From Lachnospiraceae bacterium (GTDB lineage: Bacteria > Bacillota > Clostridia > Lachnospirales > Lachnospiraceae), in the NCBI GenBank assembly GCA_017483735.1, contig JAFUVF010000004.1:3186-67185 (forward strand): 64,000 nt of DNA, read 5' to 3'. The position numbers and the translations under genes are program-made. Below are positions 20,707-31,446 of the stretch, piece after piece. The notes below the pieces were generated by a model that ran no database searches, was not told the DNA's origin, and saw only the letters and a list, made by a program, of their open reading frames with translations. The stretch's first letter is position 1. Each line of letters opens with the position of its first letter.

Positions 20707-21404
20707 TGAATTTCAGATCATCAGCGGAATTAAAGGACGAGGCAAGGGAGCTGCTTATTGGAAAATATGGCAGCTTCTTTGTAATTATAATGATAGTGAT
20801 GGCGGCGAATCTGCTTCTCGCCGCTCCGGCAAGATATATCGGTTCTTATCTAATATCCTTTCTGTTTACTATGCTGGCATCCGTGCTGCTAGGCGTTTTC
20901 AAGCCGGGGCTCTGCCTCTTCTTTCTGAATATCGCCTGTGACAGAAAGCCTCTCACTTCCGATATTTATTATGCCTTTAACAAAAGCAACCTCAAAAAGA
21001 GCCTGCTTTTGTCCTTTTATGTTGTTTTTCCGGAAATGATTCTTATGATTCCATATGGGATATTGGGCTATATGGCGGATAGGGCTTCAAGCGTTCCCCT
21101 TATGCTTGCGGCCTATGGCACTCTCGCAATAGGAGAGCTCATATACCTCCCCTACTCGCTTTTCGCTTCTCAGGCGTTTTATCTTATGCTGGATTTTCCA
21201 AGCCTTGACGCATTTGAGCTTGTAGCCTTAAGCTTTAAGAGAATGAGAGGGCATGCAGCCAGACTTTTGCTGCTTCGCTTAAGCTTTATTCCCATGTATC
21301 TTCTGGGAATATGCTCCATGGGACTTGGCTTTGTATGGATACTTGCATATGTAAATATGGCGAATGCACTATTCTTTATGGATTTGATGAAAAATCCGGC
21401 CTAA
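20706..21404 (+). CDS. DUF975-family integral membrane protein
   Basis: 232 aa, multi-TM, with an N-terminus (SAELKDEARELLIGKYGSFF) typical of DUF975. Its start overlaps the preceding stop (TAATG). Confidence 0.6.
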   Translation: MNFRSSAELKDEARELLIGKYGSFFVIIMIVMAANLLLAAPARYIGSYLISFLFTMLASVLLGVFKPGLCLFFLNIACDRKPLTSDIYYAFNKSNLKKSLLLSFYVVFPEMILMIPYGILGYMADRASSVPLMLAAYGTLAIGELIYLPYSLFASQAFYLMLDFPSLDAFELVALSFKRMRGHAARLLLLRLSFIPMYLLGICSMGLGFVWILAYVNMANALFFMDLMKNPA

Positions 21405-22525
21405 TTCTCCGATTTAACCTTATTAGATGCACTCCACTTAAGATAGCCTATAATAAACGGGTCAATGGCTCCATCTAAAACTGCATCCGCATTGGCGTTC
21501 TCCACATCCGTCCGAAGATCCTTGACCAGCTTGTAGGGCTGCAAAAAATATGAGCGTATCTGGTTTCCCCAGGCTATATCCTTAATCTCTCCCCTGATAT
21601 CCGAAAGCTTTTCTACATTTGCCTCCTTCTTAAGCATATACAGCTTGGTCTTCAGCATCTGCATGGCCTTGTCCTTGTTCTGGAACTGGCTTCTTTCGTT
21701 CTGGCACTGCACAACAACCCCCGTGGGAATATGGGTTATTCGCACTGCAGAGGAGGTCTTGTTTATATGCTGACCACCGGCACCGCTGGAGCGGTATGTG
21801 TCGATTCGCAAATCCTTATCATCAATCTCCACATCAAGGTCATCCTCTATATCCGGCATAACATCCAGCGACACAAAGGAGGTCTGCCTTTTGCCCTGTG
21901 CATTAAAGGGGGATATGCGCACAAGTCTGTGGACACCCTTTTCCGACTTTAAAAAGCCATAGGCATTCGTACCGTTTATCTGAAACTCCACGGACTTTAT
22001 GCCCGCCTCGTCTCCGTCATGGAAATCCAGAACATCTATGGAAAAGCCCTTTCTTTCAGCCCATCTGGTGTACATTCTGTAGAGCATCTGGCACCAGTCA
22101 CAGCTCTCTGTTCCGCCGGCTCCGGCATTCAGGGTAAGTATAGCATTTTTGCCGTCATATTCATCGGACAATAATGTACCTATGCGAAGGGCGTCAAACT
22201 CCTCCTTGAAGCTCTCATACTCTTCCTTTATCTCATTTACCATAGCTTCATCATTTTCTTCGTTTCCCATCTCGATTAAGGTAAAGAGATCCTCGTACTG
22301 TGCGGAGAGCTTATTCATCTCGTCCACGGTATCCTTGAGATTCTTAAGCTCCTTCATCTTGAGATTAGCCTTGTCGGCATCATCCCAGAAGCCGGGAGAC
22401 TCCATATCCATAGAAAGCTCCTCTATGCGGCGTTCCTTATTCTCCAAATCAAGAGACTCCCGCACTTCCTTAAGAGGAGTTTCATATGTAGTTAATTCGT
22501 ATTTTATATTATCTAATTCTACCAT
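21401..22525 (-). CDS. prfB: peptide chain release factor 2 (uninterrupted reading frame)
   Basis: 374 aa with the SPF tripeptide (RISPFNAQG) and the GGQ motif (SGAGGQHINK). There is no in-frame stop at the usual frameshift position. The start overlaps the secA stop (TAATG). Confidence 0.95.
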   Translation of the reverse strand: MVELDNIKYELTTYETPLKEVRESLDLENKERRIEELSMDMESPGFWDDADKANLKMKELKNLKDTVDEMNKLSAQYEDLFTLIEMGNEENDEAMVNEIKEEYESFKEEFDALRIGTLLSDEYDGKNAILTLNAGAGGTESCDWCQMLYRMYTRWAERKGFSIDVLDFHDGDEAGIKSVEFQINGTNAYGFLKSEKGVHRLVRISPFNAQGKRQTSFVSLDVMPDIEDDLDVEIDDKDLRIDTYRSSGAGGQHINKTSSAVRITHIPTGVVVQCQNERSQFQNKDKAMQMLKTKLYMLKKEANVEKLSDIRGEIKDIAWGNQIRSYFLQPYKLVKDLRTDVENANADAVLDGAIDPFIIGYLKWSASNKVKSEN

Positions 22526-25089
22526 TATTTCTTACCATGACAATTCTTATACTTCTTACCGCTTCCGCAGGGGCAGGGGTCGTTGGGATATATCTTCGCA
22601 TTCTCCCGCTTTACGGGGCCTCTTGCCGCAGAATCATCCTTGTTTGTGCCCGTGGCAACCGCCACCTGCTCTCTCTCAACCTTCTGCTCAACCCTCACAT
22701 GAAGCAGGAGCCTTACTGTATCCTCCTTGATGTTCTGGCTCATCTCATCGAACATCTCGTATCCGGTCATCCTGTATTCAACCAGAGGGTCTCTCTGACC
22801 GTAGGACTGCAGGCCTATGCCCTGACGAAGCTGCTCCATATCGTCGATGTGATCCATCCACTTTCTGTCGATTACCTTTAAAAGGATCACTCTTTCAAGC
22901 TCTCTTACCGCCTCGGATGAGGGGAACTCTGTTTCCTTGTTCTCATAGAGCTTTACCGCCTCCTCCTTTAGCTGCTGGATAAGGGCGGATTTCTTTTCCT
23001 TCTGTATGCGGCTCTTTGTCACAGGCAGCAAGGGCACAATGGGAATAAGAAGCTGATTAAGCTCATTCAAATCCCAGTCCTCATATGCGGTATCATCCCC
23101 GATTACGGTATTTACAGAGGATTCCACTATATCCGTTATCATCTTGTAGATATAGTCGCGCATGCTCTCCCCGTCCAGTACCTTCCTGCGCTCGCCGTAT
23201 ATTATCTGCCTCTGCTCACTCATAACATTGTCATATTCAAGCAGATTCTTTCTTATTGCAAAGTTATTGTTCTCTATCTTCTTCTGTGCGGTCTCTATGG
23301 ATCTGGTAAGCGATTTATGCTCTATCTCCTGTCCTTCCGGCACTCCAAGGGCGTTAAATATGGATATGAGCCTCTCCGAGCCGAACAGTCTCATCAAGTC
23401 ATCCTGCAGCGATATGTAGAACTTACTTTCGCCGGGGTCTCCCTGACGTCCCGAACGACCTCTCAGCTGATTGTCGATACGTCTGGACTCATGCCTCTCC
23501 GTGCCGATTATCTTAAGTCCTCCTGCTGCCTTTGCCTCATCATCCAGCTTGATATCAGTACCACGCCCCGCCATATTGGTGGCTATGGTAACCGCTCCGT
23601 GGATACCTGCATCCGCTACAATCTCCGCCTCCAGCTCATGGAACTTCGCATTCAATACCTTATGCTGCACTCCCACTCTTGTGAGCATCTTGGAAAGCTC
23701 CTCCGATGCCTCTATGGTAATCGTGCCCACTAACACAGGCTGTCCCTTTTCGTGCGCCTCGCACACCGCATCCACAATGGCGTTCAGCTTTTCATTCCTC
23801 GTCTTATATACCGCATCCTGCAAATCCTTACGGATAACGGGCATATTTGTGGGTATCTCCACCACGTCCATCCCGTATATCTCTCTGAACTCCGACTCCT
23901 CGGTAAGCGCCGTACCTGTCATACCGCATTTCTTTCCGAAGAGGTTGAAAAAGTTCTGGAAGGTAATGGTAGCAAGGGTCTTGCTCTCCCTCTTTACCTT
24001 CACATGCTCCTTGGCCTCTATAGCCTGATGAAGTCCGTCGGAATACCTTCTTCCCGGCATTATACGTCCCGTAAATTCGTCGACTATAAGCACCTGATCG
24101 TCCTTTACCACATAATCCTTGTCCCTGAACATCAGATTGTGCGCCCTCAAGGCAAGAATTATATTGTGCTGTATTTCAAGATTGTCCGCATCCGCAAAGT
24201 TGTCTATGTGGAAGAATTTCTCCACCTTCTCCACCCCGGCGGTGGTAAGGTTTATGACCTTATCCTTCTCATTTACTATAAAGTCCCCGGTCTCCTCCTG
24301 CACTATTCCCATTATGGCATCCATCTTGCTCATCTCGGGAATATCCTCTCCGCGGTGCATCTGTCTTGCAAGCACATCGCAGGCTTCATAGAGCGCCGTA
24401 CTCTTTCCGCTCTGTCCTGATATGATAAGAGGAGTTCTCGCCTCGTCGATAAGCACCGAGTCCACCTCGTCGATTATGCAGTAGTGAAGGTCTCTTAGTA
24501 CAAGCTGCTCCTTGTATATAACCATGTTATCTCTGAGGTAATCAAAGCCCAGCTCATTGTTTGTCACATACGTGATATCGCAGTTATACGCCTCTCTCCT
24601 CTCCTCAGGAGTCATGGAGTTTAGCACCACGCCCACGGAAAGTCCTAGGAATCTGTGAATCTGTCCCATCCATTCCGCATCACGCTTTGCAAGATAATCG
24701 TTTACCGTAACGATATGTACGCCCTTGCCCTCCAATGCATTTAAGTATGCGGGAAGAGTGGAAACGAGGGTTTTACCTTCTCCTGTTCTCATCTCGGCGA
24801 TTCTGCCCTGATGAAGGATTATTCCTCCGATAAGCTGTACCCTGTAGTGCTCCATGTCAAGAGCTCTTTTAGCGGCCTCACGCACTGTAGCGAAAGCCTC
24901 GGGAAGAAGGTCATCCAAGGTTTCCCCATCCTTAAAGCGCTTTTTGTATTCGTCCGTCTTTGCACGCAGCTCATCATTCGACAGAGCCTGCATAGACTCC
25001 CTCAGGCTCTCTATCTTCTCAACCAGAGGCTCTATTCTCTTTAGCTCTCTTGTGCTGTGTGTCCCGAATATCTTTTCCGTAAGCTTCAT
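22525..25089 (-). CDS. secA: preprotein translocase ATPase SecA
   Basis: 854 aa with Walker [13 protein letters not shown]-like DEVDS and the C-terminal zinc finger [14 protein letters not shown]. Confidence 0.97.
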
Positions 25090-25129: not shown

Positions 25130-26254
25130 CTAACACAAACCCTTTAAATAGTCCATAAAATTATCTTTGTTTTCCCTTGCAGTGGTGGTGGGACGCCCCA
25201 GATCATCTCTCGCCCCGATACCGCATTTAACCTCTATTAAACGCAAGCCCTTTTCAGCCTTCGCCCTTTCAAGCTCTCTGTCAAGAGCATCATAAGCATC
25301 CACCGATACTGCATATTTGTAGCCGCAGCCTTCGGCAATCTTTATGACATCCATGCTCCCGGCAACTGTTGGCATCCCGCCCACAGTCTCATGCGCTCCG
25401 TTATTTATAACAATATGGACGAGATTGTCCGGATTCACGCTTCCTATTACACCCAGAGCTCCCATATGCATGAGCATGGCTCCGTCTCCGTCAATGCACC
25501 ATATCCTTGTATCCGGCTTATTTATAGCAATTCCCAGCGCTATGGATGAGGAATGTCCCATAGAACCCACAGTCAGGAAATCATACTTATGACTTTTACC
25601 TCTGGCTTCTCTTATCTCAAAGAGCTCCCTGCTTGCCTTTCCTGTGGTGGATACAATAGGCTCCTCCCCTGCTGCGGTCTCGATATGCCTGATTATCTCC
25701 TCTCTCACAAGCGGACAACCGTTCTCATACTTTACCTTTTCGTCATAGGACAGCGCACCCTTCTTTACCACAAATGCCACGTCCTTTTTGTCCGAAAGCA
25801 AAGCCTTAAAGCGTTCCATTGCCTTCCTTAAATCATTTTCGCCGGTGTCCTTATCGATAACATATGCTTCTATTCCCATATCCTCAAGAAGCTTCAATGT
25901 AACCTCTCCCTGATATATGTGCTGGGGTTCGTCGTGTACTCCCGGCTCCCCTCTCCAGCCGATTATAAATATCATAGGAATACCGTAGACCTTTTCATTC
26001 AGAAGGGAGGCTACCGGATTTATGATATTTCCCTCGCCCGAATTCTGCATATACACTACGGGGACCTTTCCTGTGGCAAGATGATATCCTGCCGCAAGCC
26101 CCACACAGTTCCCCTCGTTTGCGGCGATTAAATGATGTTTTTTGTCTATCCCATATGTGTTTATGAGATAATTGCATAACGCCTTCAACTGGGAATCGGG
26201 AACTCCCGTATAAAAATCCGCACCGATTATCCCGACAAGCTCTTCAACCTTCAT
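25130..26254 (-). CDS. aepY: phosphonopyruvate decarboxylase
   Basis: 374 aa ThDP enzyme (GDGAMLMHMG...NNGAHE) with a Ppd-like N-terminus (GADFYTGVPDSQLK). It lies in a cluster with PEP mutase. Confidence 0.85.
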   Translation of the reverse strand: MKVEELVGIIGADFYTGVPDSQLKALCNYLINTYGIDKKHHLIAANEGNCVGLAAGYHLATGKVPVVYMQNSGEGNIINPVASLLNEKVYGIPMIFIIGWRGEPGVHDEPQHIYQGEVTLKLLEDMGIEAYVIDKDTGENDLRKAMERFKALLSDKKDVAFVVKKGALSYDEKVKYENGCPLVREEIIRHIETAAGEEPIVSTTGKASRELFEIREARGKSHKYDFLTVGSMGHSSSIALGIAINKPDTRIWCIDGDGAMLMHMGALGVIGSVNPDNLVHIVINNGAHETVGGMPTVAGSMDVIKIAEGCGYKYAVSVDAYDALDRELERAKAEKGLRLIEVKCGIGARDDLGRPTTTARENKDNFMDYLKGLC

Positions 26255-26973
26255 CCGAATCTATCCTCCACTGTCTTTAATTCATCCACTGTATCTATCT
26301 CAACAATTTGTTCTCCGCTTACCGGATTTATCCGCAGCTTAAGCCTGTCCAGATTGGCATCCACCACCTCATCCCAATACAGGTTTTCATGTCCCGGCCT
26401 TTTGTATGCAGCCCTTATTGCCTCTGAAAGGATTTTTGCATCATCCTTTGTAAAATAGGATACTCCAACCATATTGTAGGTGTCTGTGCCGCCCTTGCCC
26501 ACACGGGTAATCATCCCTTCATTATCAAGCTCAAACACCCAGTCGTCGGAATAGCCCTCCGTGAATCTCCCATAGTAGCAGGAGCCTTCAAGCGCCGCAT
26601 CAAATATGGAGGCGTCCCTTATATACAAATCCGCCTCACAGATAAAACAGGGACACTCCCCCATAATATCCGTTGCCGCATATATGGAGGAGATATTATT
26701 TTTTACTTCGTATTCCGTATTCTCTATGAGACTTAAGTTATCGTATTTTTCCTTCAGTACCTCAAAGGCTTCCTTCTTGTAGCCCACCACAACATATATA
26801 TGGGATACGTCTCTTTTTAGAAGCCCCTCGATAACAGTCTCTATCATTGGCTTCCCAAGTACCGGCACCATGGGCTTGGGAAGCTTTTTGGTAAGCGGCG
26901 CCATTCGGCTTCCGAAGCCCGCCGCCATAAGTATTGCAATTTCCTTTTCTTTTTCCATATCCTTAAAGCTCAT
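26251..26973 (-). CDS. LicC-like nucleotidyl(cytidylyl)transferase (candidate phosphonate-activating PntC-type enzyme)
   Basis: 240 aa with LMAAGFGSRMAPLTKKLPKPMV and LYWDEVV, which align well with S. pneumoniae LicC recalled from memory. Confidence 0.7.
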   Translation of the reverse strand: MSFKDMEKEKEIAILMAAGFGSRMAPLTKKLPKPMVPVLGKPMIETVIEGLLKRDVSHIYVVVGYKKEAFEVLKEKYDNLSLIENTEYEVKNNISSIYAATDIMGECPCFICEADLYIRDASIFDAALEGSCYYGRFTEGYSDDWVFELDNEGMITRVGKGGTDTYNMVGVSYFTKDDAKILSEAIRAAYKRPGHENLYWDEVVDANLDRLKLRINPVSGEQIVEIDTVDELKTVEDRFG

Positions 26974-28258
26974 CGATAAGACTTATAATTTCCTTAAAGG
27001 GCATAAGCATTTTGTCTGCTTCCAACGCCCTGTGACTTTTAAGTATCGTCTCCGCAGTCTGCTTCATTGCAGGGAATGCCGCCCTCATAAGCTGGTTTGC
27101 ATATATTACCACATTTATTCCGTGGCCTATAAGCTCATCCTCTGTCACGGAATTAAAGGAGGTAGGCACTACGACAATTGGCGTCTTTTTGTCCTCTTTT
27201 CTGAAGGTATCACAGAATTCAAAGATTTCTGCGGGATCCTTTTTTCTTGAATGAATCATAATGCCGTCCGCACCGGCCTTTACATAGCTTCTCGCACGGT
27301 TAAGCGCATCCTCCATTCCCTTCTCTAAGATAAGGCTCTCTATTCTGGCAATTATCATAAAATCATCCGTAAGCTGCGCCTTTTTCCCCGCACTTATCTT
27401 GGCGCAGAAGTTCTCTATGGAATCCTGTGTCTGCTCCACCTCCGTTCCAAAGAGGGAATTCTTTTTAAGTCCGGTCTTGTCCTCTATTATCACGGCGGAA
27501 ACACCTGTCCTCTCGAGGGTGCGCACATTATACACGAAATGCTCTGTAAGACCGCCCGTATCCCCGTCAAGTATAATGGGCTTTGTGGTAACCTCCATAA
27601 TATCATCTATGGTTCGGAGTCTTGATGTCATATCCACAAGCTCTATATCGGGCTTTCCCCTGTCGGTGGAATCACAGAGACTCGACACCCACATCCCGTC
27701 GAACTGATCCAGCTTCCCGTCGCCCTCAACGACAGTTTTTTCCACTATGAGTCCGGTAAGCCCGCTGTGCGCCTCCATAACCTTTACGATGGGGCAGAGC
27801 TCTATAAGCTGCTTAAGTCTCTTTCTGCGGTACTCCGGCATCGAAAGCTTTTCCTTAAGCTGGTCGTCCACCTTTTTTACATTTTCATTGTAGGTATAGC
27901 CGACCTCGACAAGCTCTCCGCCGTAGCTTTTAAGCCCTTCTATCACTCTCCCTCTTATGGAGCTTTCAGGACCGTTTTTCCAATTGTCCCCATGAAGTAT
28001 GTAATCCGGCTTAAGCTCGCTAAGGATATCTGAGTAGTTCATATCGTTCTGAACTATTACCTCGTCAACACCTTCGGTCTCCCTGTATACTTTAATTCTC
28101 TCCTCCAGAGGCAGAGTGGGAAATTTGTTGTATCTGACAAGCGCCTCGTCGGAAAGAGCCCCCACAATGACTTTGCCGTATTTCTTTGCATTGTTTATAA
28201 TATTCAGATGTCCCTCATGTATGACATCGGTACAAAAACAGGTATATGCCGTCTTCAT
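26963..28258 (-). CDS. aepX: fusion of a TagD-like cytidylyltransferase domain with phosphoenolpyruvate mutase
   Basis: 431 aa. The N-terminal ~130 aa carry the HxGH motif (DVIHEGHLNIINNAKKYG). The remainder is an isocitrate-lyase/PEP-mutase fold (GVSAVIIEDKTGLKKNSLFG). Confidence 0.85.
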   Translation of the reverse strand: MKTAYTCFCTDVIHEGHLNIINNAKKYGKVIVGALSDEALVRYNKFPTLPLEERIKVYRETEGVDEVIVQNDMNYSDILSELKPDYILHGDNWKNGPESSIRGRVIEGLKSYGGELVEVGYTYNENVKKVDDQLKEKLSMPEYRRKRLKQLIELCPIVKVMEAHSGLTGLIVEKTVVEGDGKLDQFDGMWVSSLCDSTDRGKPDIELVDMTSRLRTIDDIMEVTTKPIILDGDTGGLTEHFVYNVRTLERTGVSAVIIEDKTGLKKNSLFGTEVEQTQDSIENFCAKISAGKKAQLTDDFMIIARIESLILEKGMEDALNRARSYVKAGADGIMIHSRKKDPAEIFEFCDTFRKEDKKTPIVVVPTSFNSVTEDELIGHGINVVIYANQLMRAAFPAMKQTAETILKSHRALEADKMLMPFKEIISLIDEL

Positions 28259-28274
28259 AAAACACCCCTTTTAA

Positions 28275-29411
28275 TTATTCTTCGTTATATTTTGCGGGCA
28301 GCTTGATATCAAATTCCTCAAACGCCGCCTTCAATACCTTTGAAAATTCCGCTATATCCTTTTCGTTTATGGCTCCCAGTGCGCAAAGCCTGAAGGTTCC
28401 CTTTTTCTCTATCTTGCCCGGATATATGGTAAATCCCCTCTCGTAGCAGTAATCATGCACCTTCTCAAAATTAAAATTCTCATCATCCGGATATCTTATG
28501 GCAGAGACCAGACCTGACTGATATTTTCTGTCCACAGCCTCCTTAAGCCCCATCTCGTCCTCCATTCGGTGTATCGCTGCCATTACGGATTTGTGCCTCT
28601 CCCACTTTGCGGCTTCGCCCTCCTCAAAATATTCCTTCAAAGCCTGCTTTGCCGCATAGATGGTCTGCACCGGCGGCGTGAAATGCATCTCTCCGGTCTT
28701 TTCAAAAAATTCGTATTGCATATATAGATTGCAATAATATGAGCGCTTCGGAAAATCCTTCGACTTTTCTATTATGCTCCTCTTTCCTATGATGTAGGAA
28801 AGTCCTGTCATACCCATTATGCCCTTCTGAGCGGATGCCATACAGAAGTCCACATTGTCCTTGTTTACATCAATAGGTATCATTGCATAGCTGGAGGTGG
28901 TGTCCGTGATAAAGAAGGCGTTGTATTTGTGCGCCAGCGCCCCCACCTCTCTTATGGGATTCAAAAGCCCTGTTCCTGTCTCGTGATGCGTCATATACAC
29001 ATAGCCCACATCTGGATTTGCCTTTAAGGCGGCCTCAATCTCAGCTAATGACGGAGGCACATTTATTGGCTGTTTAAGCTCTATAAGCGGCATTCCGTAG
29101 TATTTTAACACATCACAGGCTCTGTCGCTGTAGGAGCCGTTATTTATCACAAGCGCCTTTTTGCCCTCGTCCAGAAGGGAATTGAGAGCGATATCAATGC
29201 ATATTGTTCCTGAGCCGCAGAAGAGTACTGCCGTGTATTCCTCCGTATCTCCATGCACTATGCGCACCAGGTCATCCCTCATTGGCTTCATTATGCTTTG
29301 GAATTCTTTTTCTCTCGGACATATATCCGGCACCACCTGTGCGTACTTAACAGTATCCGTGGTGGTGGAGGGTCCGGGATTAAGTAATATGTTTCGTTTA
29401 ATGCTTTCCAT
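28275..29411 (-). CDS. phnW: 2-aminoethylphosphonate--pyruvate transaminase
   Basis: About 378 aa from MESIKRNILLNPGPSTT (ATG 29409-29411, preceded by AGGGAAAGG). It is a class-V aminotransferase with SAQKGIMG (PLP lysine). The ORF track's 17-aa N-terminal extension is unlikely. Confidence 0.85.
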   Translation of the reverse strand: MESIKRNILLNPGPSTTTDTVKYAQVVPDICPREKEFQSIMKPMRDDLVRIVHGDTEEYTAVLFCGSGTICIDIALNSLLDEGKKALVINNGSYSDRACDVLKYYGMPLIELKQPINVPPSLAEIEAALKANPDVGYVYMTHHETGTGLLNPIREVGALAHKYNAFFITDTTSSYAMIPIDVNKDNVDFCMASAQKGIMGMTGLSYIIGKRSIIEKSKDFPKRSYYCNLYMQYEFFEKTGEMHFTPPVQTIYAAKQALKEYFEEGEAAKWERHKSVMAAIHRMEDEMGLKEAVDRKYQSGLVSAIRYPDDENFNFEKVHDYCYERGFTIYPGKIEKKGTFRLCALGAINEKDIAEFSKVLKAAFEEFDIKLPAKYNEE

Positions 29412-29482
29412 TTGCCTTTCCCTTTCAAAAATAATCCATATAATTATACACTTATAAGACACTCAAAACAAGGCAAATCTTC

Positions 29483-29511
29483 TTGACGGTTCATATTTAT
29501 ATTGTTAAAAT
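29483..29511 (+). promoter_or_regulatory. sigma-70 promoter for the YidC-TagF fusion gene (TTGACG-17-TAAAAT)
   Basis: TTGACG (29483-29488) is followed by a 17-nt spacer and TAAAAT (29506-29511), 36 nt upstream of the ATG. Confidence 0.6.
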
Positions 29512-29547
29512 CTATGCTATGATTTTGAGTCGACTCTAGGAGGGCAT

Positions 29548-31446
29548 ATGAGCTATATAATCGGCATATTTAAGGCAATAGTTGATTTCTGTTATTATTT
29601 GTGTAAGGACTACGGACTTGCAATAATCCTTTTTACCCTTATCAGCAAGATAATACTGATTCCGGTCTCGATATGGGTTCAGAAGAATTCCATAAAAATG
29701 GTAAAGCTTCAGCCTGAGATAAACCAGATAAAGGCAAAGTACTTCGGAGACAAGGATGCGATAGCCGACGAGGAGGGAAAGCTCTATAAAAGGGAAAATT
29801 ACAAGCCCCTTGCCACTCTTATACCCATGATAATACAGCTTGTACTCCTGATGATAGTCATAGAAGCCATAAAGGCAGGAATAGAGGATCCTAACATAGA
29901 TATGAATTCCTTCGGCGTGGATTTGAGCACCGTTCCCAACGTCGCAAAGGGTCTTTTTATCCTCTCCCCCATTCTTGCCGGACTCTCGTCCCTCATAATG
30001 TGCGTGACGCAGAATATAAGCAATGTCCTGCAGTCCGAGCAGTCCAACGCCAACAAATACGGAGTTTTGATATTTTCGGTTGCCCTCTCCTTATATCTGG
30101 GGTGGTTCGTTCCCGTGGGAGTGGCACTTTACTGGATAGCCAGCAACCTCATGTCCATTGCGCAGATGTATATCCTGAACTTTGCCATAAATCCGAAAAA
30201 GTATATTGATTATGAAGCTTTGGAGGAGTCAAAGAAGGCGCTGGCAGAGCTTGGAAGCATAGGCGAAAAGAAGCAGAATATCTTCCAAAGGCTCTCAGAC
30301 CCCAACATAAAAAGAGAGCGTGCGGATTACAAAAAATTCTTCTCAATAGTGAATAAGCACCTTGTCTTTTACTCGGAATCCGGCGGATTTTACAAATACT
30401 ATAGGGGACTCATCGAATGGCTCCTTGCAAATACAAATCTCACAATCCATTATATAACCTCCGACCCTGATGATGCTGTTTTTGAGCTTTCTGGGAAGGA
30501 AAGCAGAATTAAGCCCTACTATATCGGGGAGAAACGCCTCATAACCCTGATGATGAAGATGGATGCAGATATTGTCGCAATGACCATGCCCGATATCGAA
30601 AACTTCCACATAAAAAGAAGCTATGTGCGAAAGGATATCGAATATCTCTATATCCCCCACTATATGGACAGCGCAAATCTCACTATGAGAAAGGGGTGCC
30701 TCGACCATTATGACACTGTATTCTGCACAGGCAGGCATCAGGTTGAGGAAGCAAGAAAAACCGAAGAAGCATACAACACAAAGGAAAAGAAGCTCATAGA
30801 ATGGGGATATTGCCTTTTGGACGAAATGATAGCGGATTATGAGAGTAAGCCCCATAAGGAAAACGAGACAAAGCAGATACTTATAGCCCCCTCATGGCAG
30901 GCTGACAATATCGTGGACAGCTGTCTGGAGGATATCTTAAATGCGCTTAAGGACAAGAATTACAATATAATAGTCCGCCCCCACCCTCAGCATGTACGCC
31001 ACAGAGGTGAGTATATGGAGGCGCTCAAGGAGAAGTACAAGAGCTCTCCCAACATTGAGATACAAACCGACTTTTCTTCCAGCAGCACGGTAATGGATTC
31101 AGACCTCATTATAACGGACTGGTCCAGTATAGCCTATGAGTTTGCCTTTACAACAAAGCGTCCCGTGCTCTTCATAAATACGCCTATGAAGGTTATGAAT
31201 CCGGAGTACACAAGGATTGATACCGTTCCCATAAATATCTGGATGAGGGACAAGATAGGCGCTTCCATAGACCTTGATAAGCTTGGCACCGTAGGCGAAA
31301 AGGCTGACGAGCTCATACAAAAAACTCCCGAATACAATGAGATAATACGGGAGTTTGTAAACGAGTATGTATATAATCCCGGACACAGCGCCGAAGTAGG
31401 CGGCAAATACATAATGGAAAGTCTGATGAAGAGAAAAGCTAATTAA
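29548..31446 (+). CDS. fusion protein: N-terminal YidC/Oxa1-type membrane insertase domain plus C-terminal TagB/TagF-like glycerophosphotransferase-family domain
   Basis: 632 aa. Residues ~1-215 look like a short Gram-positive YidC (GLAIILFTLISKIILIPV...QPEINQIKAKY...ALYWIASNLMSIAQ). Residues ~270-632 carry TagF-family motifs (ILIAPSWQ, VRPHPQ, DLIITDWSSIAYEFAFTTKRPVLFI). Confidence 0.75.
   Translation: MSYIIGIFKAIVDFCYYLCKDYGLAIILFTLISKIILIPVSIWVQKNSIKMVKLQPEINQIKAKYFGDKDAIADEEGKLYKRENYKPLATLIPMIIQLVLLMIVIEAIKAGIEDPNIDMNSFGVDLSTVPNVAKGLFILSPILAGLSSLIMCVTQNISNVLQSEQSNANKYGVLIFSVALSLYLGWFVPVGVALYWIASNLMSIAQMYILNFAINPKKYIDYEALEESKKALAELGSIGEKKQNIFQRLSDPNIKRERADYKKFFSIVNKHLVFYSESGGFYKYYRGLIEWLLANTNLTIHYITSDPDDAVFELSGKESRIKPYYIGEKRLITLMMKMDADIVAMTMPDIENFHIKRSYVRKDIEYLYIPHYMDSANLTMRKGCLDHYDTVFCTGRHQVEEARKTEEAYNTKEKKLIEWGYCLLDEMIADYESKPHKENETKQILIAPSWQADNIVDSCLEDILNALKDKNYNIIVRPHPQHVRHRGEYMEALKEKYKSSPNIEIQTDFSSSSTVMDSDLIITDWSSIAYEFAFTTKRPVLFINTPMKVMNPEYTRIDTVPINIWMRDKIGASIDLDKLGTVGEKADELIQKTPEYNEIIREFVNEYVYNPGHSAEVGGKYIMESLMKRKAN

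Follow-up and report, generated by a model that had tools for sequence, protein, structure and literature searches.

The 64,000-nucleotide stretch examined here (the window) comes from contig JAFUVF010000004.1 of a Lachnospiraceae bacterium and carries, at 29548-31446 on the plus strand, one open reading frame (ORF) that runs from ATG to stop without interruption and encodes a 632-aa protein in which a YidC/Oxa1 membrane core is followed by a TagF-like enzyme domain. The ORF encodes a genuine two-domain inner-membrane protein and lies divergently beside an operon for the 2-aminoethylphosphonate (AEP) pathway. Reasoning throughout from homology and gene linkage, we consider the case evenly balanced for reading this protein as a CMP-AEP-dependent phosphonyl transferase that belongs to a modular envelope-decoration system and whose YidC domain is itself functional. 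The gene is divided as follows.

29548..31446, plus strand: fusion gene, 632 aa, YidC/Oxa1 core, linker and TagF-like GT-B domain (both Pfam domains)
29548..30192, plus strand: YidC-like domain (aa 1-215) with an extracellular amphipathic helix, TM1, the cytoplasmic C1 hairpin and TM2-TM5 (profiles and model)
30193..30348, plus strand: cytoplasmic linker (aa 216-267), helical, partly of low confidence (AlphaFold2 model)
30349..31443, plus strand: TagF-like GT-B phosphotransferase domain (aa 268-632; PF04464, domain model, TarL alignment)

The fusion had been proposed in a preliminary description of the window, and it is borne out: 60KD_IMP and Glyphos_transf both exceed their Pfam cut-offs on the 632-aa ORF, and the models match solved structures of both kinds (YidC 3WO7; TagF 3L7K and TarL 8VA1). 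The protein has more than 7,700 database matches, the best 120 of which are 64-69% identical, full length and equipped with the two Pfam domains, and derive from many assemblies independent of one another; the few of these 120 for which the source gives a name are called 'membrane protein insertase YidC'. That a sequencing or assembly frameshift joined two genes, the danger pointed out at the outset, is scarcely credible and can be ruled out as the origin of the fusion, the same architecture and length being found in these best 120 matches and in 80 genome loci described below; conservation of the linker between the two domains among relatives also argues against it. Decay of the window copy is likewise ruled out, as it keeps 71 of the 71 positions that are at least 95% conserved across 122 relatives. 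In the whole-protein AlphaFold2 (AF2) model (pLDDT 79.9, pTM 0.62), the order is an amphipathic N-terminal helix, five transmembrane (TM) helices with the C1 hairpin, the linker and an alpha/beta domain; the linker has helices at aa 222-236 and 245-266, pLDDT below 50 at aa 237-248 and a dip in conservation in the family alignment. The LicD profile (PF04991) gave no match to the fusion ORF at E≤0.1.

The C-terminal part is matched by Pfam Glyphos_transf (PF04464) over aa 402-543, with 54.2 bits against a cut-off of 22.1, and the motifs noticed earlier, ILIAPSWQ, RPHPQ and DLIITDWSSIAYEF, are all present and align to the TarL motifs APT.., KMHP and DLLISDYSSLIYEYA. A broad family profile reaches TarL 8VA1 in the PDB at 2.7e-7, over the C-terminal half only, and sets RPH479P opposite KMH433P of TarL, whose H433 we take to be the equivalent of TagF H584, a donor-phosphate contact. 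Searched by sequence with phmmer and a close-homologue profile, the PDB yielded only YidC and no TagF. When the C-terminal 388 aa are modelled alone with a broader alignment, a clean GT-B fold results (pLDDT 96.1, pTM 0.92), for which the best Foldseek E-values belong to the TagF-like capsule polymerases 8QOY and 8A0M/8A0C and to TarL 8VA1, interleaved with MurG (rank 2); the whole-protein model finds TagF 3L7K at an E-value of 2.8e-10 and also TarL 8VA1 and the capsule polymerase 8A0M. Across 46 TagF-like sequences, fused and unfused, nine residues do not vary: H371, S375, D389, E401, G420, W450, H479, P539 and G571. Of the two histidines, H479 (codon 30982-30984) belongs to the RPHP motif, and H371 (codon 30658-30660) lies in the loop that follows a beta-strand in the N-terminal Rossmann domain, a region that the alignments to TagF and TarL do not reach. 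In the known enzymes the catalytic base is located in the N-terminal domain (TagF H444, TarL H300), and we infer a histidine-based catalysis through H371 and H479.

By these profile and fold matches the catalytic domain is classed as a distant member of the TagF/TarL family. With TagF, TarL, TagB and the capsule polymerases (PF04464; 3L7K, 8VA1, 8A0M, 8QOY) it shares the GT-B-like fold of two Rossmann domains, the motifs APSW, RPHP and DxxxSDWSS as aligned to TarL, two invariant histidines and a cytoplasmic position at the membrane, and the expected chemistry would be the same, with a hydroxyl attacking the distal phosphorus of a CMP-linked donor and CMP leaving. It differs from them in forming a distant subfamily of about 370 aa without the TagF-type N-terminal membrane-targeting domain, in being joined to or adjoining a YidC core, and in having neighbours that make donors of the AEP, hydroxyethylphosphonate (HEP), choline/ethanolamine and phosphoramidate types, not CDP-glycerol or CDP-ribitol. 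It is probably a decorating enzyme rather than a polymerase.

The nature of the donor is suggested by the genes on the other side of the control region, all on the minus strand.

29412..29547, no strand: 136-bp divergent control region with a promoter-like site and a ribosome-binding site (RBS) for the fusion gene
28275..29411, minus strand: 2-aminoethylphosphonate aminotransferase (AEPT, PhnW-AepZ), first gene of the operon (TIGR03301, Aminotran_5)
26963..28258, minus strand: cytidylyltransferase-phosphoenolpyruvate (PEP) mutase fusion, Fom1-CyTase-like at aa ~4-134 followed by PepM (CTP_transf_like and PEP_mutase)
26251..26973, minus strand: LicC-like nucleotidyltransferase, candidate PntC for CMP-AEP (NTP_transferase)
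25130..26254, minus strand: phosphonopyruvate decarboxylase (Ppd), last gene of the operon (TIGR03297, thiamine pyrophosphate domains)

The scores exceed the equivalog cut-offs for AEPT (TIGR03301, 418.7 bits against 360.8), PEP mutase (TIGR02320, 422.3 against 319.55) and Ppd (TIGR03297, 463.7 against 312.5). PepM carries the motif EDKx5NS as EDKTGLKKNS at aa 259 and matches 5UNC at 4e-43, its N-terminal domain matches the Fom1 CyTase 5X3D at 3e-26, and the best solved relative of the LicC-like protein is S. pneumoniae LicC (1JYK, 1.7e-29), with PntC Tde1415 (6PD1) at 8.7e-9. The earlier claim of an AEP operon with two cytidylyltransferase modules, one Fom1-CyTase-like and one LicC-like, therefore stands: as judged from the profiles, the divergent operon represents a complete AEP pathway, and a single locus holds what marks a Pnt cluster, namely PepM with EDKx5NS, Ppd, AEPT and a PntC-type cytidylyltransferase. 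The length of 136 bp that had been given for the shared control region is right if AEPT starts at ATG 29411, and wrong if it starts at GTG 29462. The latter, which opens the longest ORF, is probably not the start, since the ATG is preceded by GAAAGGGAAAGG, comes with an RBS and agrees with the family model from residue 8 onward. The fusion gene has the RBS AGGAGG at 29538-29543; a promoter-like TTGACG-17-TAAAAT at 29483-29511 on the plus strand matches the consensus, the number of such sites does not exceed the expectation from shuffled sequence, and we treat it as a lead only. Downstream, the AEP operon continues after a 40-bp gap behind Ppd into secA (22525-25089) and prfB (21401-22525), all on the minus strand. 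The G+C content is 0.43-0.44 over 28-32 kb of the window and about 0.47-0.48 in the flanks, which is compatible with insertion of the AEP and fusion block upstream of secA.

Taken together, these genes would allow the following sequence of reactions. The divergent operon would make AEP by means of PepM, Ppd and AEPT, and activation to CMP-AEP would be the task of the LicC-like cytidylyltransferase, PepM itself being fused to a second such module. In the next step the TagF-like domain, through H371 and H479, would take the phosphonyl head group of CMP-AEP and attach it to a hydroxyl on a membrane-bound acceptor, with CMP set free; this is the kind of transfer that TagF and TarL carry out with CDP-glycerol and CDP-ribitol. 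It is probable that the domain is a transferase whose CMP- or CDP-linked head group is set by the adjacent cassette, the donor in the window being CMP-AEP. The closest published counterpart is the Pnt pathway (Rice et al., 2019; PMC6697681), which has the same AEP genes, including the cytidylyltransferase-PepM fusion and the LicC-like enzyme, and a predicted destination at the cell surface, and which differs in that the adjacent candidate transferase is here a YidC-fused TagF-like protein and not LicD. That paper names only LicD-like phosphotransferases or glycosyltransferases as neighbours, and its abstract calls the steps after formation of the carbon-phosphorus bond by PEP mutase enigmatic (Rice et al., 2019; PMC6697681).

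How general the arrangement is was assessed by a scan of one genome per species, which found relatives in 237 species-level genomes; 80 loci were examined with up to 10 kb of flank, and 47 of them, with at least 5 kb on both sides, form a well-flanked subset. Many of the loci are metagenome-assembled genomes (MAGs) or short contigs, and the counts depend on ORF calling and local hidden Markov models (HMMs). The 80 loci belong mostly to Lachnospiraceae and include some Oscillospiraceae and Erysipelotrichales and a few contigs that are probably mis-binned; the last are six (L004, L023, L062, L066, L068, L070) in Paludibacteraceae, Odoribacter and Saccharibacteria/Nanosyncoccus bins, whose copies are 56-65% identical to those of Lachnospiraceae and for which mis-binning is the probable cause and horizontal transfer a less likely one.

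Co-occurrence of the fusion with pepM across genomes, raised as a question at the outset, is only partly borne out. In three genomes (L010, L016, L018) the fusion gene lies within the AEP operon, in the order PntC-PepM > LicC > FUSION > AEPT > Ppd, and an unfused form of the association is known from locus L081; such cases are a minority, with PepM, Ppd or AEPT genes within 10 kb of the fusion in about 11 of the 80 loci and PepM beside it in 5 of the 47 well-flanked ones. A LicC-type nucleotidyltransferase cassette is more regular, occurring within 8 kb in 32/47 well-flanked loci (68%), and is of three kinds: NTP_transferase fused to a CobD-like pyridoxal-phosphate enzyme of the threonine-phosphate-decarboxylase type, NTP_transferase fused to a choline/ethanolamine kinase, and the AEP set (PntC-PepM, Ppd, AEPT). 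To go by their family names, all three would provide small head groups of the amino-alkyl phosphate or phosphonate type; no tagD or tarIJ-like gene was seen among the neighbours. The TagF domains of PepM-linked fusions do not form a clade and are 82-84% identical to copies beside other cassettes, and the cassettes must therefore be swapped. The family is tied to interchangeable LicC-type donor cassettes and not to phosphonates as such.

Three further genes recur around the fusion. An LtaS-like multi-TM protein with an ectodomain is present in 39 of the 47 well-flanked loci (83%), a type-I signal peptidase in 33 of them (70%), and a small protein of 70-100 aa in 76 of the 80 Clostridial loci, its gene being the next one after the fusion in 66 of those 76; the surroundings consist of cell-wall glycopolymer genes (GT2, GtrII, YfhO, DUF6020, Acyl_transf_3, Glf, ManC, ABC ATPase). 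The LtaS-like partner has five TM helices and an ectodomain with conserved Thr, Asp and His, as in the LtaS/GacH/EptA-type transferases, and is the usual neighbour or fusion partner in other genomes, unlike in the window, where it is absent. Its similarity to them is weak: by profile its best solved relatives are LtaS 2W5Q (7e-8) and 4UOO, and Pfam Sulfatase scores below or near its cut-off.

The small protein consists of a basic N-terminus, a helix resembling a signal peptide that ends in A-x-A, the motif Y-[IL]-D-P-[SGN], one TM helix and the basic cluster YWRKAKKK, followed in Clostridia by an acidic tail. The Y-[IL]-D-P-[SGN] motif is invariant and its Tyr lies at the outer membrane boundary. 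Pfam and NCBIfam have no model for the protein, and its count rests on a dedicated HMM run on 35-aa frames (clustering of ORFs of at least 90 aa gave 32 loci). In a few loci it forms the N-terminus of the LtaS-like ORF, and in quadruple fusions it serves as a TM linker. Its build resembles that of M13 procoat, a Sec-independent client of YidC that is afterwards cleaved by leader peptidase (PMC5766580, PMC7886851). Examples, all outside the window, are the following.

L025:12099-12380, plus strand: small protein
L081:7201-7413, plus strand: small protein
L084:9922-10134, minus strand: small protein
L096:7169-7396, plus strand: small protein

The same partners are found fused into longer proteins. 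A search of the C-terminal domain against 1.84 billion representative proteins gave 2,316 matches at E≤1e-3 and 485 at E≤1e-30; the best 150 of the 2,316, typed with local HMMs and checked with Pfam, have the architectures below.

Stand-alone TagF-like: 95 of the best 150
YidC-TagF: about 34 of the best 150
LtaSlike-YidC-TagF: 8 of the best 150
YidC-TagF-small-LtaSlike: 4 of the best 150
YidC-TagF-LtaSlike: 4 of the best 150
SPaseI-YidC-TagF (type-I signal peptidase at the N-terminus): 1 of the best 150
YidC-TagF-choline kinase (P0136): 1 of the best 150
Small-TagF: 1 of the best 150

Two of the long fusions are confirmed as single called genes on contigs (L090, L091). In L090 a signal peptidase gene lies just upstream, and in L091 (381-7952) two LicD genes, Aminotran_5 and NTP_transf_3 directly precede a 1,326-aa YidC-TagF-small-Sulfatase fusion, so that head-group transferases of the LicD and TagF types coexist in one operon. 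The domain orders of the fusions appear topologically coherent with the published topologies of YidC and LtaS.

Unfused TagF-like relatives are 30-39% identical and keep the partnership in the form of separate genes, adjoining HEP or phosphoramidate cassettes. Locus L081 is a self-contained operon (Sulfatase > PntC-PepM > Ppd > iron-dependent alcohol dehydrogenase > TagF-like > small Y-L-D-P protein > 224-aa YidC-like). The marine loci L084-86 and L092-94 have the order Sulfatase > PRK05849-type kinase > gamma-glutamyl-CDP-amidate-hydrolase-like protein > NTP transferase > TagF-like > 216-aa YidC-like, with the small protein nearby; in L084 (2182-9852) the cassette, of phosphoramidate type, comprises a PRK05849-type (glutamine) kinase with 892.8 bits, a gamma-glutamyl-CDP-amidate-hydrolase-like GATase and the NTP transferase, which suggests that the module also installs phosphoramidate-like groups outside Campylobacter. 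The O-methyl phosphoramidate (MeOPN) transferases of C. jejuni were considered as TagF-like and dropped, the paper treating 'CGPTase' and MeOPN transferase as different genes. In L095-100 the TagF-like gene is followed by the small protein and a 530-aa YidC of the Gram-negative type. In L088 (8001-13576) and L089 no YidC is present, and the TagF-like gene lies beside NTP_transf_3 and a phosphonate ABC importer (two Phosphonate-bd proteins, ATPase, permease) in a NeuB/polysialyltransferase-like glycan locus, where environmental phosphonate may be salvaged for surface decoration. The stand-alone YidC-like partners were found by jackhmmer from three seeds, a local HMM of the fused YidC domain having missed them. 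Of 83 environmental loci of unfused relatives, many of them short contigs, 48 have an NTP transferase, 40 the small protein and 26 an LtaS/sulfatase-like gene. From these neighbour counts, the conserved core consists of the TagF-like protein, the small protein and the donor cassette, with or without the LtaS-like protein, and YidC was recruited in some lineages and then fused in Clostridia. We regard it as about equally probable as not that the window protein is part of a modular system for decorating the cell envelope that is conserved in Clostridia and has less close relatives in other phyla, the grounds being homology and gene neighbourhood. The window itself holds a stripped-down version, the minimal pair of donor cassette and YidC-TagF.

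The N-terminal part of the protein is a bona fide YidC/Oxa1 core. Pfam 60KD_IMP (PF02096) matches aa 22-211 with 117.6 bits against a cut-off of 35, and NCBIfam yidC_oxa1_cterm (TIGR03592) scores 110 bits against 84.3. In the AF2 model the helices of the domain span aa 22-64, 69-82, 87-112, 135-158, 167-185 and 190-214, and Foldseek aligns the whole model to B. halodurans YidC 3WO7/3WO6 with a target TM-score of 0.72-0.75 and a root-mean-square deviation of about 3 A. The five TM segments recognised earlier are recovered together with the C1 hairpin, and the peptide QPEINQIKAKY, correctly picked out at that stage, aligns onto the C1 region of E. coli YidC. The positive charge of the groove is provided by K34 (codon 29647-29649), which stands opposite R366 of E. 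coli YidC in the alignment; among 123 fused family members this position is K in 114, R in 6 and a gap in 3, and a groove charge has been called strictly conserved in YidC insertases (PMC8920935). In the same 123 members the canonical motifs Y85, P93, Q97, Y195-W196 and N200 are at least 97% conserved, and pairwise identity averages 0.50 over the YidC domain and 0.53 over the TagF-like domain. YidC has an N-out/C-in topology, and LtaS lies N-in with its ectodomain outside. The C-terminal domain must be cytoplasmic, as had been assumed, because the YidC core is N-out/C-in.

Such canonical features invite the reading that the source annotation implies, namely that the protein is a housekeeping or accessory YidC insertase, with a regulatory or unrelated GT-B domain and a merely coincidental position beside the AEP operon. 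The name 'membrane protein insertase YidC', the fully canonical core, the lack of pepM in most loci and the presence of secA 4.4 kb away in the window all speak for it. As in the short Gram-positive YidC proteins (SpoIIIJ/YidC2; 3WO6/3WO7), there are a five-TM core, a cytoplasmic hairpin, the motifs, a charge in the groove at TM1 and a C-terminus in the cytoplasm, and the likely client resembles M13 procoat and has a signal peptidase alongside. The fusion nevertheless departs from these proteins in having no lipoprotein signal peptide, a groove Lys instead of Arg, and a 370-aa enzyme in place of the ribosome-binding C-terminal tail. Its setting is also different: the single-copy rnpA-yidC-jag context of a housekeeping yidC is not found, the neighbours being the AEP aminotransferase and rpe, related loci are variable glycopolymer and decoration regions, and some MAGs have two copies (L039/L042, L043/L074). 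Since, moreover, the GT-B domain keeps its nine invariant residues, including the two histidines, in fused and unfused forms, 68% of the well-flanked loci have a nucleotidyltransferase cassette, a fusion with choline kinase exists, and three genomes have the gene within the AEP operon, we consider the housekeeping role highly improbable.

A second view, close to the preliminary description, in which the YidC module was an anchor or acceptor-handling domain, is that the TagF-like domain moves AEP, at the cytoplasmic side of the membrane and without an intermediate, to a lipid-linked glycan or a teichoic-acid-like precursor, that the YidC part is an anchor devoid of insertase function, and that export is left to unrelated transporters. 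TagF and TarL are peripheral membrane enzymes that need targeting to the membrane, and the models match 3L7K and 8VA1; the loci lie among glycopolymer genes with possible exporters or GT-C enzymes of their own, and the window has neither small protein nor LtaS-like partner, so that the enzyme may act alone. We nonetheless find this account doubtful. Constraint on the YidC domain equals that on the catalytic domain, and the canonical motifs and the groove K/R are retained; fusions that already bear the five-TM anchor of the LtaS-like protein still keep the domain; in distant taxa a gene of its own encodes it next to soluble TagF-like genes; and a procoat-like small protein and a signal peptidase accompany it. 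The data argue for a functional YidC domain rather than a passive anchor, because it evolves as slowly as the catalytic domain, persists beside other TM anchors and is a separate gene elsewhere.

In the mechanism we prefer, the core would hold the enzyme at the membrane and at the same time act as a dedicated insertase and assembly platform for the module's own membrane subunits, its clients being the procoat-like small protein, matured by the type-I signal peptidase, and perhaps the LtaS-like ecto-phosphotransferase, whereby assembly of the complex would be tied to the enzyme. These partners are encoded beside YidC-TagF or fused with it in most genomes; here they are not within the 64-kb window. 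This role is suggested because the small protein and the signal peptidase mirror the route of M13 procoat through YidC and leader peptidase, and it requires the fewest new assumptions; we hold it tentatively, at somewhat less than an even chance.

The partners can also be read as a device that synthesizes, flips and transfers. To our knowledge, the characterised membrane-anchored members of the LtaS/EptA clade all take the phospho-head group from a lipid at the outer face, and the LtaS-like partner would therefore need a translocated donor. The TagF-like domain would load the head group on a lipid or on the Tyr/Ser loop of the small protein, the YidC groove would carry the adduct across, and the LtaS-like protein would install it on a wall polymer. 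No other obvious flippase is constant in the module, the triple fusions, in either gene order, put YidC in the middle with a cytoplasmic enzyme on one side and an extracellular one on the other, and the L081 operon is self-contained. Insertases including YidC scramble lipids in vitro and in silico (PMC11047089), and the invariant Tyr of the small protein at the outer boundary recalls the small-protein tyrosine relay of the DltX type in the Dlt system (PMC12148441). Systems such as MprF (lysyl-phosphatidylglycerol synthase and flippase), GtrB/GtrA/GtrC and DltABCD(X) would be analogous in their working only, each combining a cytoplasmic transferase with a membrane module and outer transfer; they have no homology to the present proteins, in which translocation would fall to the YidC domain. 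On the other side, many unfused relatives have no YidC neighbour, scrambling by YidC is non-specific and so far tied to no pathway, a protein carrier used only once would be costly, and the window lacks the LtaS-like and small-protein genes. We consider this route unlikely, and we attach a similarly low probability both to its supposed range of cargo (AEP, HEP, phosphocholine- or phosphoethanolamine-like groups or phosphoramidate, from a CMP-linked donor) and to the broader proposal that a YidC/Oxa1 core was recruited with the small protein into a device for exporting head groups, as a fusion in Clostridia and as an adjacent gene in some other bacteria. A head-group translocator is thus less likely than an insertase and assembly platform, and there is a minority chance of a new type of export logic.

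Several observations weigh against a CMP-AEP-dependent transferase with a working YidC domain. The Glyphos_transf match spans only positions 146-292 of the 367 in the profile, the nucleotide-binding half (positions 11-292 are matched in the relatives P0127 and P0129), a sequence profile must be broadened before it reaches TarL and none reaches TagF itself, and the TM-scores of 0.5-0.6 are no better for TagF-like proteins than for other GT-B proteins such as MurG and UDP-GlcNAc 2-epimerase. The correspondence of H371 to TagF H444 and TarL H300 is deduced from its position and not from an alignment. As for the donor, pepM is found in only about 11-14% of the fused loci, and the two LicD genes of L091 could be the real users of the CDP-linked head group there, since adjacency of a cassette does not equal use of its donor. 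As for YidC, the separate YidC-like partners carry Asn (L081) or Ser (L084) at the groove position, which weakens the argument from charge-based substrate capture; a YidC-like neighbour is present in only 13 of the 83 environmental loci, many on short contigs, and YidC is therefore not obligatory for the enzyme family; and the small protein, the signal peptidase and the LtaS-like gene, searched for in the 64-kb window, are all absent from it, so that the proposed clients of the insertase are not seen there.

The literature searched holds no description of a YidC-TagF fusion, of the five-part module, of swappable donor cassettes or of the small Y-[IL]-D-P protein family, in agreement with the first impression that the domain combination is uncharacterised. 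These four elements would thus be new, whereas the TagF/TarL kind of enzyme, the YidC/Oxa1 core and the Pnt-type AEP cluster are known. The family offers a concrete candidate for the missing phosphonyl transferase of Firmicutes, with relatives wired to other donors as natural controls. It is large and prominent in gut Lachnospiraceae, and the label 'YidC insertase' has led to a surface-chemistry system being overlooked that is relevant to interactions with the host and with phages. The repeated coupling of YidC with an enzyme, a mini-protein, a signal peptidase and an LtaS-like protein bears on the role of specialised YidC paralogues, which may insert a single client or translocate something else, and the interchangeable cassettes suggest a plug-in logic for decoration with zwitterionic head groups. 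Should the export reading be true, an Oxa1-family protein would for the first time be seen in a biosynthetic pathway handling a cargo other than a nascent protein, and the zwitterionic decoration of surfaces in abundant gut Lachnospiraceae would have a new, general route.

Some loci have additional features. Two genome bins contain a pair of paralogous fusion genes on separate contigs and in separate neighbourhoods, L039 and L042 in MAG JAKSQO01 and L043 and L074 in MAG CAKRKK01. Seven loci of the Waltera/Acetatifactor type (L025, L030, L034, L035, L040, L050, L063) have three tandem LtaS-like paralogues 3' of the fusion and small-protein genes, at about 12.4-17 kb in the coordinates of the locus, and a GGDEF diguanylate cyclase with a periplasmic sensor domain directly upstream. 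In their sister loci L031, L036 and L047 an NTP_transferase-CobD-like cassette takes the place of the third LtaS-like paralogue.

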